64,000 nt of DNA from an uncultured Clostridium sp. (GTDB lineage: Bacteria; Bacillota; Clostridia; TANB77; CAG-508), in contig CASVZF010000002.1 in NCBI GenBank assembly GCA_949467015.1, forward strand, positions 2,856 to 66,855, in the 5' to 3' direction. The stretch's first letter is position 1. The number at the start of each line of letters is the position of its first letter. The notes under the pieces were generated by a model, which was not told the origin of the DNA, ran no database searches, and was given only the letters and a program-made list of their open reading frames with translations. Position numbers and translations under genes: made by a program. Shown one piece after another: positions 49,272 through 57,006 of the stretch.

Positions 49272-50381
49272 TTACTGATTCCAATTGATAGTAGCAGAGC
49301 AACCACTATTCCAATTACTATCCCATCCTGAAGGTGCACTTGAATATCCTTGTATATTTATAGTTTGAGATGATGTCCAATAACAAAAGGCCCAAATCCC
49401 TATGTTTATTACTCCGTTTTGTATGGTTATACTACTTAAATTTGTAGCTCCCCTAAATGCGTTTTTTTCTATACTTGTTACACTATCTGGTATTTTATAT
49501 TCCTGTGCTTGCTTCCCACTTGGCCAATAAATCAGTTTCGTGCTATCTTTATTAAATAAAATTCCATCATTACTACTATACTCCTTATTATCTGTATCTA
49601 CATTTACACTTATTAAATTTGTACAATTTGAAAATGCACAGTCTCCTATACTTATTACACTTTCTGGAATTGTAATCTCTCTTAGCTTAATAAAAGACGC
49701 TCCTGTATCAAATCCAAATGAACATCTACCAATTTTAATTACTGTTTTTGGTATTTCTACTTTTAATATATTATTTGTAAAAGCTCTTGAATTAGCTACT
49801 GTTGTCCCATCCTCATATACGCTCCACTCAGAACTACCATTTGTACCATAAAATTCTATTTCTGTACATCTACTTGGAAACCTTAATACTGTATAATTTT
49901 CTATCTTTTCAGTATAACCTATAATTGTACCATATCCTTCCTCATTAGGATCGTCACTTTTCCAATAAAAACAATCTTCATCTGATGCTGTTTTATCCCA
50001 TTCTTCTGCATCAAATGCATAAGATACTGTTCCATTTTTATCTATTTTTATTTTTACTCCATCTACCGTTACTGTTAATGGAAAACTAGTATCTTCAATT
50101 GTATCAGGCACTCCTTGAATTTCCTTTATATTACTTAAATTAGTTTTTAATAATCCATTATCTAAATTTCCATCTGCTCCATAACTTCCTAATACTTCTA
50201 CCTCTACTTGTTCTTTAGCTGATGCCTTGGTTGTTTCTGTTTTGGCTTTATTAGCTTGATTTAATATTCCATTTTCTCCTGTTAAGGTTGCAATTGTTAC
50301 TCCTGCTAAAATTAATAATACAATAATTGTTATCACTAATGCAATTAGAGTAATTCCTTTGTTTTTTCTTAGTTTTTTCAT
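49272..50381 (-). CDS. surface protein with type-IV-pilin-like N-terminus (KGITLIALV...) and C-terminal BspA-type leucine-rich repeats
   Basis: 369 aa; N-terminal KNKGITLIALVITIIVLLILAGVTIATLTGENGIL; C-terminal repeats of the IP.SV.SIG..AF..C.NL form. Confidence 0.6.
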   Translation of the reverse strand: MKKLRKNKGITLIALVITIIVLLILAGVTIATLTGENGILNQANKAKTETTKASAKEQVEVEVLGSYGADGNLDNGLLKTNLSNIKEIQGVPDTIEDTSFPLTVTVDGVKIKIDKNGTVSYAFDAEEWDKTASDEDCFYWKSDDPNEEGYGTIIGYTEKIENYTVLRFPSRCTEIEFYGTNGSSEWSVYEDGTTVANSRAFTNNILKVEIPKTVIKIGRCSFGFDTGASFIKLREITIPESVISIGDCAFSNCTNLISVNVDTDNKEYSSNDGILFNKDSTKLIYWPSGKQAQEYKIPDSVTSIEKNAFRGATNLSSITIQNGVINIGIWAFCYWTSSQTINIQGYSSAPSGWDSNWNSGCSATINWNQ

Positions 50382-50565
50382 ACTTTCTCTCCTTTATTTT
50401 ATTATCTCTTGTACTTTGCCAAAATATACCTGACATTTTTGTCGTATCTTCATCTATATTTTATCTTTATAAAATCCTCTCGTCAATACTTTTATGACAA
50501 AAATGTCGTTTTATTTTGACTTGCCGTATAATATAATATTTTAAATATAAGACGGGAGGCTAATA

Positions 50566-50754
50566 ATGATAAGACAATATCGATTAAAGAAAAAATTATC
50601 ACAAGAAGAATTAGCTGAAGAAATTGGTATTAGTTGGAGACACCTGCAAAGGCTCGAGCATAACGAAGAAAATACCAGAATCTCTACTTTTAAGAAAATA
50701 GTAAAAACTTTACAGGTTCCAGATGATGAAATATTAAAATTTATAAAAAAATGA
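50566..50754 (+). CDS. XRE-family HTH transcriptional regulator
   Basis: 62 aa; LSQEELAEEIGISWRHLQRLE helix-turn-helix. Confidence 0.65.
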   Translation: MIRQYRLKKKLSQEELAEEIGISWRHLQRLEHNEENTRISTFKKIVKTLQVPDDEILKFIKK

Positions 50755-50774
50755 CCAAGAGATATCTCTTGGTT

Positions 50775-54182: not shown

Positions 54183-54281
54183 GTAGTTATTCTATATAAT
54201 TAGCATATGCGTTAAGCATACGTCAACAACATCTCTATAGCGCAAATAGAACTGACTACTTACAGTTTTTATTTTCCAAAT

Positions 54282-55370
54282 TTATGTTCTAAGAACATAT
54301 GGATCATCTTTTGTACCTGTTCCATCTATTATATATACACTAGGTCTTAGAGTAAATACAGGACGAAGACCAAAAGAGGGACAATACGGATATGGGTTAC
54401 CACTACTATAAACCCCTATAATGTATCCTTCTAACATTCTTCCCACAGTATCATAGTTTCTAAGTGCAAAAATTTTAGTATTACCCCACCACGATAAACA
54501 TCGAGAAGCCATCCAATAATTTTTGCCTATATTATGAATGTTCAAATTTTTCATTTGCTCACTGTCCATTAGATAGTTGCTATCAGAATTCTTTAAGATT
54601 CCATTTATCTTAGACATATAAATATCATCCCCTGTGCAGTAATCACTTGCTTCCTGACTCGGATTGTCTGGTACACTTCCTACGCATCTTGCACTAGTAG
54701 CATAATTTGTATTTAGGTATGCCATAGCTCTTGTATTCAATGTATCTATTGCATTATTATATGATTCGTATGCTACATCAATAGAGCCAGCCCCAATCGT
54801 AACCGATTCCACTATATCTGTCGTTATTATTTGAACTCCGTAATTTTTTCCATTTATGTTATTATAATCTGTATCATATAATACTATACATTTTATCGGT
54901 TCTCCATTTTCTTGTGGATAATATACATATTCTCCTGCTTTTAAATAATCTGCTATATATTTTTCTTTAAATATTATTAGTCGGCTTCCAATCGTTACTT
55001 TATAAGTTGCTTCTATTCCTTTTGAGTCATTTCCCAATATCTGATCTTTTTCATCTTCTGTTAATAATTTTTGATTTACTAAATTATTGATTAATTCTTC
55101 CAGTGTTTCGGCTGTTCCATTTTCTGTATAATTATCCGCTTTTTGGTTTATTTTCCATAAATCTTTCGCCTCTTCAACACTTGCTCCTCTTGTTTCTTCT
55201 TTTGCTTTTCCCGCCTGAGTTAATATTCCATTATCTCCTGTTAATGTAGCAATTGTTACTCCTGCTAAAATTAAAAGCACAATAATGGTTATAACAAGTG
55301 CAATAAGCGTTATACCTTTCTCCTCTTTTGCTTTTCTTATATTATTCATATTAACTATTACCTTTCTCAT
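54282..55370 (-). CDS. pilin-like-N-terminus protein, paralog 2 (non-LRR C-terminal domain)
   Basis: 362 aa; N-terminal EKGITLIALVITIIVLLILAGVTIATLTGDNGIL nearly identical to 49272..50381 and 55351..57006. Confidence 0.55.
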   Translation of the reverse strand: MRKVIVNMNNIRKAKEEKGITLIALVITIIVLLILAGVTIATLTGDNGILTQAGKAKEETRGASVEEAKDLWKINQKADNYTENGTAETLEELINNLVNQKLLTEDEKDQILGNDSKGIEATYKVTIGSRLIIFKEKYIADYLKAGEYVYYPQENGEPIKCIVLYDTDYNNINGKNYGVQIITTDIVESVTIGAGSIDVAYESYNNAIDTLNTRAMAYLNTNYATSARCVGSVPDNPSQEASDYCTGDDIYMSKINGILKNSDSNYLMDSEQMKNLNIHNIGKNYWMASRCLSWWGNTKIFALRNYDTVGRMLEGYIIGVYSSGNPYPYCPSFGLRPVFTLRPSVYIIDGTGTKDDPYVLRT

Positions 55371-57006
55371 ATTTTATATATCCATCTCTGTCCGAATTAG
55401 TACTAACAAAATTTTGAGTAATATAACTTCCAATCTCTATTATAGATTCTTTTATATAAATAGTATTTGCATACTTTACCAAACATCCACAAGCATTGGC
55501 AGAACTAATATTTTTTGCTATGATAGGTGAATCAATAGTTAACGTCTTTAGTTCAGAACATTCAACAAATGCATTTCCTCCTATAGAAGTAACATTTTCA
55601 CCAATAACAACATAATTCAATTTTGGACAATTATGAAATGCATTATCTGCAATAGTTTTTACTTTATCTAAGTTTTCTACTTTTTCTAATGAAGTACATG
55701 ACCAAAAAACACCACTGTTTATATTCGTAATACTACTTCCTAATTTTACGTTTTTTAATTTGATACAACCATAAAAAGACCAGTTTCCTATATTTCCTAT
55801 ACTATCCATCACTTCAAAATCCCCCTCATAACCTGTTGGGACTTTTATTATTTTACTTAAATCATATGAATATAGCACATCATCAATAACTTTAAATGTT
55901 AGAGAGTCATTATCTATTTCTATTTCCTTCCAATTTGGACAACTCGTGAAAGCATTACAAGCTATTGCTGTTGATTCATTATTATATATTACTTTCTTTA
56001 AATTATTACATCCTACGAAAGCATTTCCACCTATGCTTTTTACTCCACTTCCAATTTGTATCGTCTCTATTCCACTGCAACCGTGAAAACAATCTGCACT
56101 AATTACTTGAACTTTATCTGGTATATTTAAGTTTTTTATTTTAGTACATAAATTAAACGACCATAAACCTATTGTTTCTAAATTATTAGATAATTGTAAT
56201 TTTGTTAAATTTGAAGCTCCACTAAATGCGTAATTTCCTATTTTATTTACAACTTTTCCATTATATTCTTCAGGAATATATAAAACAAAATCATAATCAA
56301 TTGTACTTTTTAAGGCATTTTTATTATTTGAACTTCCATTTCCTATCATATAGCTTTTTATTTCACTTTCATTCTCGGTGACATTCCCACTAGAATTTAA
56401 TCCTGTAAATACTAAATCTTCTTTTTGTATTACATAATAGTAAAGTATTTTTATTTCTGTGTTTTGAGTTATTATCTTTGAAAAAGTACTTTCTACAGAT
56501 TCGTACCTTTCAATTTCAGGGGGCTCTATTAAACAATTGTCATTTAATGTTGCTACTTCTATTTCTTTTAATACTTCATTTTTGCTATTAATACATTTTA
56601 TATTTATTTTCTTTTCACCATTTGTAACATTAATTAATTCTACATTTGAATTTTTATCAATTTCATAGTATCTTTTACTATCTGTAAAATATACTTGTAA
56701 TTTTTGATTATAATCATATACTTCTGTCTTTCTATCTCCTACTATTCTATTTAATTCATTTTGTAAAGAATCCTTTTCTATGACATTGTTAGTACTAATA
56801 ACTGCTGTTGCTGCTAATTGTACTATTTCCTTTTCTTTTCCTATTTCGGCCTGTTCTTTTGCTTCATTAGCTTTTGTTAATATTCCATTATCTCCCGTTA
56901 ATGTAGCAATTGTTACTCCTGCTAAAATTAAAAGCACAATAATTGTTACAACAAGTGCAATAAGCGTTATACCTTTTTCTTCTTTTTTTGTTGTTTCTAC
57001 TTTCAT
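55351..57006 (-). CDS. pilin-like-N-terminus protein, paralog 3, with BspA-type LRR C-terminus
   Basis: 551 aa; same conserved N-terminus; LRR_5-like repeats (NAFVGC.NLK..). Confidence 0.6.
   Translation of the reverse strand: MKVETTKKEEKGITLIALVVTIIVLLILAGVTIATLTGDNGILTKANEAKEQAEIGKEKEIVQLAATAVISTNNVIEKDSLQNELNRIVGDRKTEVYDYNQKLQVYFTDSKRYYEIDKNSNVELINVTNGEKKINIKCINSKNEVLKEIEVATLNDNCLIEPPEIERYESVESTFSKIITQNTEIKILYYYVIQKEDLVFTGLNSSGNVTENESEIKSYMIGNGSSNNKNALKSTIDYDFVLYIPEEYNGKVVNKIGNYAFSGASNLTKLQLSNNLETIGLWSFNLCTKIKNLNIPDKVQVISADCFHGCSGIETIQIGSGVKSIGGNAFVGCNNLKKVIYNNESTAIACNAFTSCPNWKEIEIDNDSLTFKVIDDVLYSYDLSKIIKVPTGYEGDFEVMDSIGNIGNWSFYGCIKLKNVKLGSSITNINSGVFWSCTSLEKVENLDKVKTIADNAFHNCPKLNYVVIGENVTSIGGNAFVECSELKTLTIDSPIIAKNISSANACGCLVKYANTIYIKESIIEIGSYITQNFVSTNSDRDGYIKYEKGNS

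Follow-up and report, generated by a model that had tools for sequence, protein, structure and literature searches.

Three paralogous genes with a common N-terminal module

A stretch of 64,000 nucleotides from an uncultured Clostridium sp. (Clostridia; TANB77; CAG-508; GenBank assembly GCA_949467015.1, contig CASVZF010000002.1, positions 2,856 to 66,855), referred to below as the window, encodes three paralogous proteins, A, B and C, that begin with a common pilin-like module and end in different domains, and that we interpret as probable modular type IV pilins. An original prediction, made by reading the sequence alone, had placed three genes with such an N-terminus at this locus, and both the open reading frames (ORFs) and a six-frame scan agree with it. 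The genes and their parts are the following (aa, amino acids; LRR, leucine-rich repeat):

49272..50381, minus strand: gene A, 369 aa (ORF call); a basic 8-aa leader MKKLRKNK, Gly9 and a hydrophobic helix of the pilin type, then a small head resembling that of a pilin (about aa 1-126) and an LRR domain of the BspA type
50199..50381, minus strand: N-terminal module of gene A, comprising leader, Gly and residues +1 to +52 (from a logo of 105 modules and the repeat copy)
49272..49814, minus strand: LRR_5 (BspA-type) region of gene A, about aa 190-369 (Pfam PF13306, two stretches)
54282..55370, minus strand: gene B, 362 aa (ORF call); leader, Gly19, a pilin-type helix, a helical linker and a predicted expanded C-type-lectin-like domain with a GLRPVFTL end
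55158..55370, minus strand: N-terminal module of gene B (six-frame scan, logo, repeat copy)
55351..57006, minus strand: gene C, 551 aa (ORF call); an 11-aa leader, Gly12, a pilin-type helix and two BspA-type LRR blocks
56815..57006, minus strand: N-terminal module of gene C (six-frame scan, logo, repeat copy)

In all three proteins a basic leader with K-G at its end comes first and ITLIALV(I/V)TIIVLLILAGVTIATLTG(E/D)NGIL next, and a six-frame pattern scan recovers exactly three copies of this block in the window. The leaders are rich in K and E and measure 8 aa in A, 18 aa in B (11 if translation starts at Met8) and 11 aa in C, as in the hydrophilic leaders of about 6-26 aa with a terminal Gly that define class III signals (PMC4471445). 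The hydrophobic stretch that follows the Gly, ITLIALVITIIVLLILAGVTIATL, is 24 residues long, and thus accommodates the hydrophobic helix of about 21 residues that belongs to the same signal. Position +1 is Ile and position +5 is Ala in A, B and C, as originally described for the places usually held by Phe+1 and Glu+5, and the first acidic residue stands at +27. Every feature of the published class III signal definition is present in these proteins except Glu5 (PMC4471445).

At the DNA level, a repeat search of the window resolved the block as a single family of 142-nt direct repeats at 50238-50379 (A), 55197-55338 (B) and 56854-56995 (C), with the A and C copies 77% and 88% identical to that of B, respectively. 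Over the first 99 nt from the Gly codon B and C are 96% identical, with 29/32 codons the same, and A is 85% identical to B and 83% to C. As a baseline we compared the same module between different genomes, where the mean DNA identity is 77.5% and the 99th percentile 86.9%. The A-B and A-C values lie below this 99th percentile, so that selection on the peptide together with shared codon bias suffices for A. The B-C value exceeds the between-genome baseline, a sign of recent duplication or conversion; the same holds for tandem paralogues elsewhere, with module identities of 93-98%. On these sequence comparisons, gene conversion is required for the likeness of B and C only, and not for A. The block had been put at about 60 codons of roughly 90% identity; it is indeed shared, but spans about 45-47 codons, and the high identity holds for B and C rather than for A.

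A large family of mosaic proteins in gut Clostridia

Searches with a profile of the N-terminal ~70 residues recovered 32,327 representatives at E<=1e-3 and 20,758 at E<=1e-10 (counted as cluster representatives at 50% identity), and the match almost always covers residues 1-70. Across this family about 50 positions are near-invariant, in the form [KNR]-G-ITLIALVITIIVLLILAGV-[ST]-I-A-x-L-T-G-[ED]-N-G-I-L-x-x-A-x-x-A-K-x-x-T ... E(+48) ... L(+52). Ala occupies +5 in 99% of the 105 modules in the logo, and Gly(-1) is near-invariant in the family alignments, with Ala as the sole replacement seen. Given that these ~50 residues are near-invariant across more than 20,000 clusters in which the DNA differs at synonymous sites, selection acts on the peptide, as opposed to the copies being recent, and conservation of this extent goes far beyond the needs of a plain membrane anchor. 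A tblastn search of phage and plasmid collections with the module gave no match, and thus no sign of an origin in mobile elements.

All but one of the 80 genome loci that we retrieved come from metagenome-assembled genomes (MAGs) that were obtained from the guts of humans and animals and belong to uncultured Clostridia, Clostridium or Eubacteriales; the exception is labelled Erysipelotrichaceae. Several MAGs contribute more than one of these loci, and at least 3-5 module proteins are seen per genome. A Pfam search of 80 long members detected LRR_5 in 8, FGE-sulfatase/CTLD in 5, Glug in 4, DUF285 and DUF6273 in 3 each, and a GDSL lipase and a Spy0128-like domain in one each, with most members lacking any Pfam domain. 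Other C-termini, B-type lectin-like domains among them, follow copies of the first ~120 residues of gene A that are 57-74% identical to it, and unrelated C-termini follow copies of the first ~140 residues of gene B at 70-79% identity. To judge from these alignments, the family members are mosaics of interchangeable N-terminal moieties of about 120 aa and varied C-terminal domains.

The module is the N-terminus of the pilin of a type IV pilus operon

In four loci from related MAGs (L077, L051, L087 and L067) module genes of 140-173 aa lie inside a complete type IV pilus operon, with the order PilM/N-like, a 237-aa protein, a 164-aa protein, the pilin or pilins, a PilD homologue, two minor pilins, PilB, a PilT-like protein and PilC. 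Profile matches identify the PilD homologue (A24_N_bact, E 8.7e-30), PilB (T2SSE, 1.9e-93), the PilT-like protein (4.1e-45) and PilC (T2SSF, 3.5e-27). In an ascertainment-independent test, metagenome contigs were searched with the 164-aa operon protein, itself no pilin; 80 loci were fetched, 57 of them evaluable, and in 53 of the 57 a pilin gene that begins with the module sequence lies between the genes for the 164-aa protein and PilD. All 39 distinct N-termini of these operon pilins read G-[IV]-T-L-[IV]-A-L-V... with Ala at +5 (39/39), and 28 loci carry PilD, PilB, PilT and PilC together. This result indicates that the module is the class III signal and N-terminal helix of the lineage's own pilin.

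Further comparisons point the same way. The module profile, run against 177,635 PDB sequences, yielded six matches at E<=10, all of them type IV pilins aligned in register at K-G-x-T-L-I, with E-values that are marginal (Geobacter PilA-N 0.002, MshA 0.004, PilA 0.05 and PilE1 0.12 among them). In an hhalign comparison the family of gene-A-type N-termini matched the operon pilins with 99.8% probability and an E-value of 8e-30 over 85 columns, extending through residue ~90. One public source annotates gene A as 'type II secretory pathway pseudopilin PulG', and in one MAG (Lapin-027__bin53) the operon (L087) is accompanied by long module proteins (L025, L082). The suggestion that A, B and C belong to a non-canonical pseudopilin-like family is thus supported by the operon pilins and the profile comparison, and the PDB matches are consistent with it. 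Glu5 is regarded as near-invariant in bacterial pilins, is dispensable for processing of the class III signal and is normally required for homopolymer assembly (PMC4471445).

The first minor pilin after PilD (L077:11801-12229, with equivalents in L132, L160, L166 and other loci) has Asp at +5, in the form G-[FY]-T-G-[IV]-D. This is the sole acidic +5 residue in the system, whose other pilins are without one.

The lineage has two genes of the A24 family. The PilD homologue of the operon (271 aa; L077:10973-11788) consists of the bacterial A24 N-terminal zinc-ribbon domain only; it lacks GxGD and has no match to the peptidase domain even at E<=10. A stand-alone protein of 250 aa (L022:19128-19880; also in L089-L093) is made up of the peptidase domain only (PF01478, 4.9e-18), with the sequence GLGDVKL. 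Across the lineage its conservation is 70-87% and its place is always between a YqeG-like (HAD) phosphatase gene and PepP-EF-P, and in GCA_017533795.1 it occurs on one contig with a module gene, 8 kb away. From this division of domains, the prepilin-peptidase function seems to be split between two genes. A prepilin peptidase had been named as something to look for; A24 homologues are present in the lineage, and the window itself has none.

C-terminal domains of the adhesive type

The C-terminal domains had been described as BspA-type LRRs in two of the proteins and as unrelated in the third, and Pfam searches concur. LRR_5 (PF13306) was detected in A (E 3.6e-19, 69.3 bits) and in C (E 1.2e-46, 158.2 bits) well above its gathering cut-off of 27.7 bits, and C also matches LRR_8 (E 8.6e-17). 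The same search found no domain in gene B, nor any for its C-terminus across 36 family members. BspA-type LRR proteins are usually exported by the Sec pathway and anchored by other means. The C-termini of A and C belong to these BspA-like surface proteins (PF13306); here, the LRR domain sits on a pilin-type N-terminus.

An AlphaFold2 model of gene B (mean predicted local distance difference test score, pLDDT, 87.9) has a helix at 19-44 and a second at 49-79, and its sole significant fold match in the PDB is 9qa6, the immunoglobulin A (IgA) peptidase of Thomasclavelia ramosa (E 3.5e-5). The N-terminal domain of that peptidase has been described as an expanded C-type-lectin-like domain (PMC12237041), and on the strength of the model the C-terminus of gene B is assigned to the same type. 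Its relatives terminate in the same YWLASR...GFRPVFTL motif in the family alignment. For aa 1-140 of gene A the model (pLDDT 78) comprises helices at 8-34, 39-64 and 75-83 and three strands. Modular pilins join an N-terminal pilin module to a domain foreign to pilus biology; the domains in that position here are LRR_5 in A and C and the lectin-like fold in B. The C-terminal domains of all three proteins are of the binding or adhesion type.

Recombination at the module in nature

The cluster of gene B at 90% identity contains a 355-aa variant in which the leader of gene C (MKVETTKKEEK) is joined to the body of gene B. At least 13 contigs carry this haplotype, in assemblies from NCBI, ENA and Logan (GCA_900752255.1 among them), and every one lacks gene C between unaltered flanks. 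Alignment shows that it differs by a deletion of 1,657 bp, a length equal to the spacing of the repeat copies in B and C, and that the switch from C-type to B-type sequence falls within 27 identical bases at the start of the module:

56950..56976, minus strand: crossover segment in gene C, 27 nt identical to gene B 55293..55319; deletion junction
55293..55319, minus strand: partner crossover segment in gene B

We considered and rejected an assembly artefact as the source of this deletion. The 27-nt identity is shorter than assembler k-mers, the haplotype has private single-nucleotide polymorphisms (SNPs), and the contigs, at least 13 in number, come from different assemblers; the short identity and the private SNPs mark the deletion as a real product of recombination. 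Recombination between copies of the module has therefore occurred in nature, and the recombinants between paralogues that had been proposed as a check do exist in related strains. The idea that the identical 5' ends serve as recombination substrates is upheld by this fusion at 27 identical bases, and its gene-conversion part is needed for the B-C pair alone. Programmed surface variation is speculation.

Gene A has variants as well. One, P0504, differs in its leader and in the start of its module. A gene A with another leader, less certain than the fusion of C and B, sits on a Logan contig of 2293 nt (ERR9752388; L098), where the 3' end of a segment of the pilus operon is joined to it: the end of a PilO-like gene comes first, then a 129-aa operon gene, a pilin leader together with 11 codons from the start of the module, the body of gene A and finally rpsF. 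We downgraded this contig as proof of the operon in the present species because its parents share an exact 32-mer at the join, which permits a chimera at k=31; the hybrid may be either a real rearrangement or such a chimera. Separately, in a 400-aa variant from Logan, P0502, unrelated sequence replaces everything before ...IIVLLILAGV, which could be a further breakpoint inside the module or an assembly artefact.

Probable modular pilins and the alternatives

Taken together, we regard A, B and C as modular type IV pilins and probable adhesins, each with the stem of the lineage's Glu5-less pilin and a binding-domain head, and would give this interpretation a probability of about 0.7. The stem comprises a hydrophobic helix of ~25 residues with an amphipathic stretch after it. 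An A24 peptidase would remove the leader after the Gly at the cytoplasmic face of the membrane, and the helix would hold the mature protein in the membrane. The pilus machinery would then load the module proteins into the filament, because their stem helix matches that of the major pilin. The tip is the likeliest site, given that the grafted domain is bulky, and the adhesive heads of such a pilus would be interchangeable. Through homologous recombination at the near-identical 5' modules, paralogues could be deleted, joined and reshuffled, so that the set of adhesins varies between strains. More tentatively, and with a probability that we would put clearly below even, the Glu5-less helix of the major pilin may serve this uncultured and abundant lineage of gut Clostridia as a universal 'plug' that loads many adhesins and enzymes on one filament or machinery, with recombination continually re-assorting the repertoire.

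Several observations weigh against regarding these proteins as pilins. A, B and C themselves lack the Glu5 of type IV pilins, and none of the window's genes is a pilus, peptidase or canonical pilin gene. In 80 loci the long module genes adjoin no conserved machinery, and their recurrent neighbours there are housekeeping genes (NusB, XseA, EngA, IleRS, RNase R, PGI). The one contig that links the pilus operon to this very genome is L098, which may be an assembly chimera. The Pfam N_methyl model (PF07963) gives 16.9 bits for A, 12.7 for B and 14.2 for C, under its cut-off of 21.2, and NCBIfam yields no prepilin-domain match at E<=0.1 for the window proteins, just a sub-threshold GspG. The N_methyl matches are sub-threshold yet consistent, and one operon pilin reaches 20.8 bits. 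A Foldseek search of the PDB with the model of aa 1-140 of gene A returned no significant pilin match and nothing at E<0.4, and the [ST]-I-[AS] at +20 to +22, which follows A-G, would suit cleavage by signal peptidase I. Apart from these points, a motif scan of the 80 loci for the T2SSE Walker box gave a single match (in L028), which proved to be FtsK and was rejected as a pilus ATPase.

The closest rival would have the module act as a pilin-derived membrane anchor without filament assembly, processed by A24 or left unprocessed: a display signal that has escaped from the pilus, by analogy with the Sulfolobus 'bindosome'. Such an archaeal precedent (PMC4471445), the scattering of the long module genes among housekeeping genes and never within the pilus operon (746 kb of loci centred on the operon contain one long module ORF against 76 short ones), the poor fit of grafted domains of 200-500 aa in the body of a filament, and the housekeeping context of the stand-alone A24 gene (HAD - A24 - PepP - EF-P), suggestive of a general processing role, all speak for it. 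Against this, the helix matches the operon pilin residue by residue over ~50 positions, which points to packing with pilins or machinery as the constraint, beyond mere insertion in the membrane, and pilins of the modular kind that bear bulky domains are known from the tips of pili (PMC8179133, PMC9934059). We consider an escaped anchor plausible, though less likely than modular pilins. A good deal less likely is an ordinary Sec signal peptide, cut by signal peptidase I after [ST]-I-A, or an uncleaved anchor, conserved through young or gene-converted paralogues. The basic n-region, the hydrophobic core, the Gly five residues ahead of the small-x-small motif at +20 to +22 and a length typical of Firmicutes would all suit a Sec signal, as would the sub-threshold scores of the pilin hidden Markov models and the absence of pilus genes from the window. 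Young or converted copies, however, do not account for ~50 residues that hardly vary among more than 20,000 clusters of many species, at a between-genome DNA identity of 77.5%, and a Sec signal would not readily account for a module that heads the pilin in 53/57 independently found operons, has only pilins as PDB relatives, shows only Ala in place of Gly(-1) among the variants seen, and has a hydrophobic core of 20 or more residues.

The locus might also be read as a programmed cassette for antigenic or phase variation, in which the 5' block is a recombination site that swaps C-terminal domains behind an active promoter, as in the variable lipoproteins of Mycoplasma. The strong promoter match upstream of C, the natural fusion of the C leader to B with loss of C, the P0504 variant of gene A, and the 93-98% module identity of adjacent paralogues elsewhere would be expected of such a cassette. 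Yet none of the genes looks silent, as A and C are each preceded by a promoter-like site and begin with a start codon of their own, and B lies immediately after C and points the same way; the locus has no recombinase or inverted repeats; the event observed is an irreversible deletion fixed in a strain lineage with its own SNPs; and the A-B and A-C identities are at the level expected from protein constraint. A programmed cassette is accordingly as improbable as the Sec signal, and modular pilins remain the reading that we favour.

Relation to known systems

Modular pilins have been described in Streptococcus sanguinis, where PilB has a von Willebrand factor A (vWA) module and PilC a lectin module (Raynaud et al. 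2021, PMC8179133; PMC9934059). Like the genes in the window, these combine a class III signal and a short pilin moiety with a grafted lectin-type or protein-binding module and are predicted to be displayed at the tip. They differ in having the canonical Glu5, in being encoded in the pil operon, and in numbering one or two per genome; the window-type genes have Ala5, lie outside the operon among housekeeping genes, and share a helix identical to that of the operon pilin. The module family has more than 20,000 clusters, against ~1,200 modular pilins found via InterPro IPR012902 (PMC8179133; PMC9934059). Tip subunits of the GspK/PilK type and S. sanguinis PilA are without Glu5, are missed by pilin detectors and have been proposed to sit at the filament tip with no subunit above them (PMC9934059). 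In those systems, however, the lack of Glu5 is confined to one subunit and the major pilin retains it, whereas here the operon pilin itself lacks it (39/39). The sugar-binding proteins of the Sulfolobus solfataricus bindosome likewise have Glu5-less class III signals fused to binding domains, with many per genome (PMC4471445). Their surface localisation depends on a type IV filament-like system, and the proteins themselves are archaeal and processed by PibD (PMC4471445); no common near-identical helix of 50 residues has been reported for them, and the present family is bacterial (Clostridia), with PilB/PilT/PilC-type machinery.

A further parallel exists among the families with many paralogues per genome. 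The H-X9-DG proteins (TIGR04294) of Planctomycetota and Verrucomicrobiota fuse a prepilin-type N-terminus to other domains in this way; they have the canonical GFTLxE and one specific C-terminal domain, whereas the module family is Glu5-less with diverse C-termini.

A full-text literature search for 'GITLIALV' returned no paper, and no description of a Glu5-less operon pilin or of the module family was found in the searchable literature, the coverage of which is incomplete. Modular pilins and single Glu5-less tip pilins are thus already known. What is new is a bacterial pilus system whose operon pilin is Glu5-less throughout a lineage, a family of more than 20,000 clusters, overlooked by current models, that reuses the exact pilin helix, and direct evidence of gene fusion and deletion mediated by the common module.

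Genomic context and strain differences in the window

Chromosomal genes surround A, B and C (rpsF-ssb-rpsR, a P-type ATPase, MntP, SMC, RelA), with a GC content of ~27%. By their ORF coordinates genes C and B overlap by 20 nt, and abut if B starts at Met8 (55349); this may be the true start of B, in which case the overlap disappears. Their arrangement suggests that C and B are probably co-transcribed. The following features adjoin the genes (HTH, helix-turn-helix):

57064..57092, minus strand: perfect sigma-70 consensus TTGACA-17-TATAAT upstream of gene C (consensus match only)
50458..50486, minus strand: promoter-like site TTGACG-17-TAAAAT upstream of gene A (consensus match only)
57199..57474, plus strand: XRE-family HTH gene, 91 aa, divergent, upstream of the C-B pair (PF01381)
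50566..50754, plus strand: XRE-family HTH gene, 62 aa, divergent, upstream of gene A (PF01381)

From their positions the two divergent XRE genes might be candidate dedicated regulators, or else part of a duplicated unit. Nearby, positions 46517-47479 encode a 320-aa protein with an N-terminal membrane anchor and weak matches to bacterial immunoglobulin-like domains (Big_7, Big_13), without the pilin-type module; its domain matches make it a probable further surface protein near the locus.

Elsewhere, the window differs between strains. Positions 1-40260 are absent from a 258-kb contig of the same species that is otherwise 99.9% identical, and identity to locus L008 ends at 40261. This region contains conjugative genes (a relaxase at 1134-2777, NikA-like, LPD1, an N6/N4 methylase, NlpC/P60, VirB4/TraG-like, PrgI, and a DnaG-type primase at 22858-25209), as well as an epimerase and a radical-SAM/SPASM gene, and by this gene content is probably an integrated conjugative element with its cargo. 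Within it, 26323-28731 and 28950-30446 encode two large proteins made up of SpaA/prealbumin-like domains, the 802-aa one with 8 stretches (E 5.8e-72), whose domains suggest adhesins of the sortase type that travel with the mobile element. Two overlapping ORFs make up the SMC gene, which is broken into 60931-61146 (71 aa) and 57600-60989 (1129 aa), by one extra base near 61000 (...GTACTTCGGAGAGCAG...) that disrupts the expected VLGEQS reading; as the split is also called in independent assemblies (L001, L094, L095) it is not a one-off sequencing error. Finally, in 61278-63127 an HTH gene (61329-61676) and a gene for an NMT1-type binding protein (61951-63081) are 77-90% identical to L001, with flanks at 99.7%, and on this comparison the segment is a local hot spot of strain divergence.

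Implications

The lineage-wide Ala5 of the operon pilin challenges the rule that Glu5 is needed and offers a system in which to test that rule. If the helix does act as a universal plug, it would underlie by far the largest pilin-anchored surface proteome known, and would provide a natural test of bacterial type IV filament assembly without the salt bridge between Glu5 and the N-terminus. As Pfam and NCBIfam miss the module, tens of thousands of proteins are labelled hypothetical, and a model built for the module would bring these to light, and with them the catalogue of modular pilins would grow more than tenfold. The module family appears to be a main route for the display of LRR and lectin-like domains in the little-studied low-GC gut Clostridia of humans, rabbits, chickens and ruminants, where the displayed domains are likely determinants of attachment to the host, to mucus or to other microbes. 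The module is also a demonstrated site of deletion and fusion between paralogues, and thereby a source of strain-level variation in adhesins.

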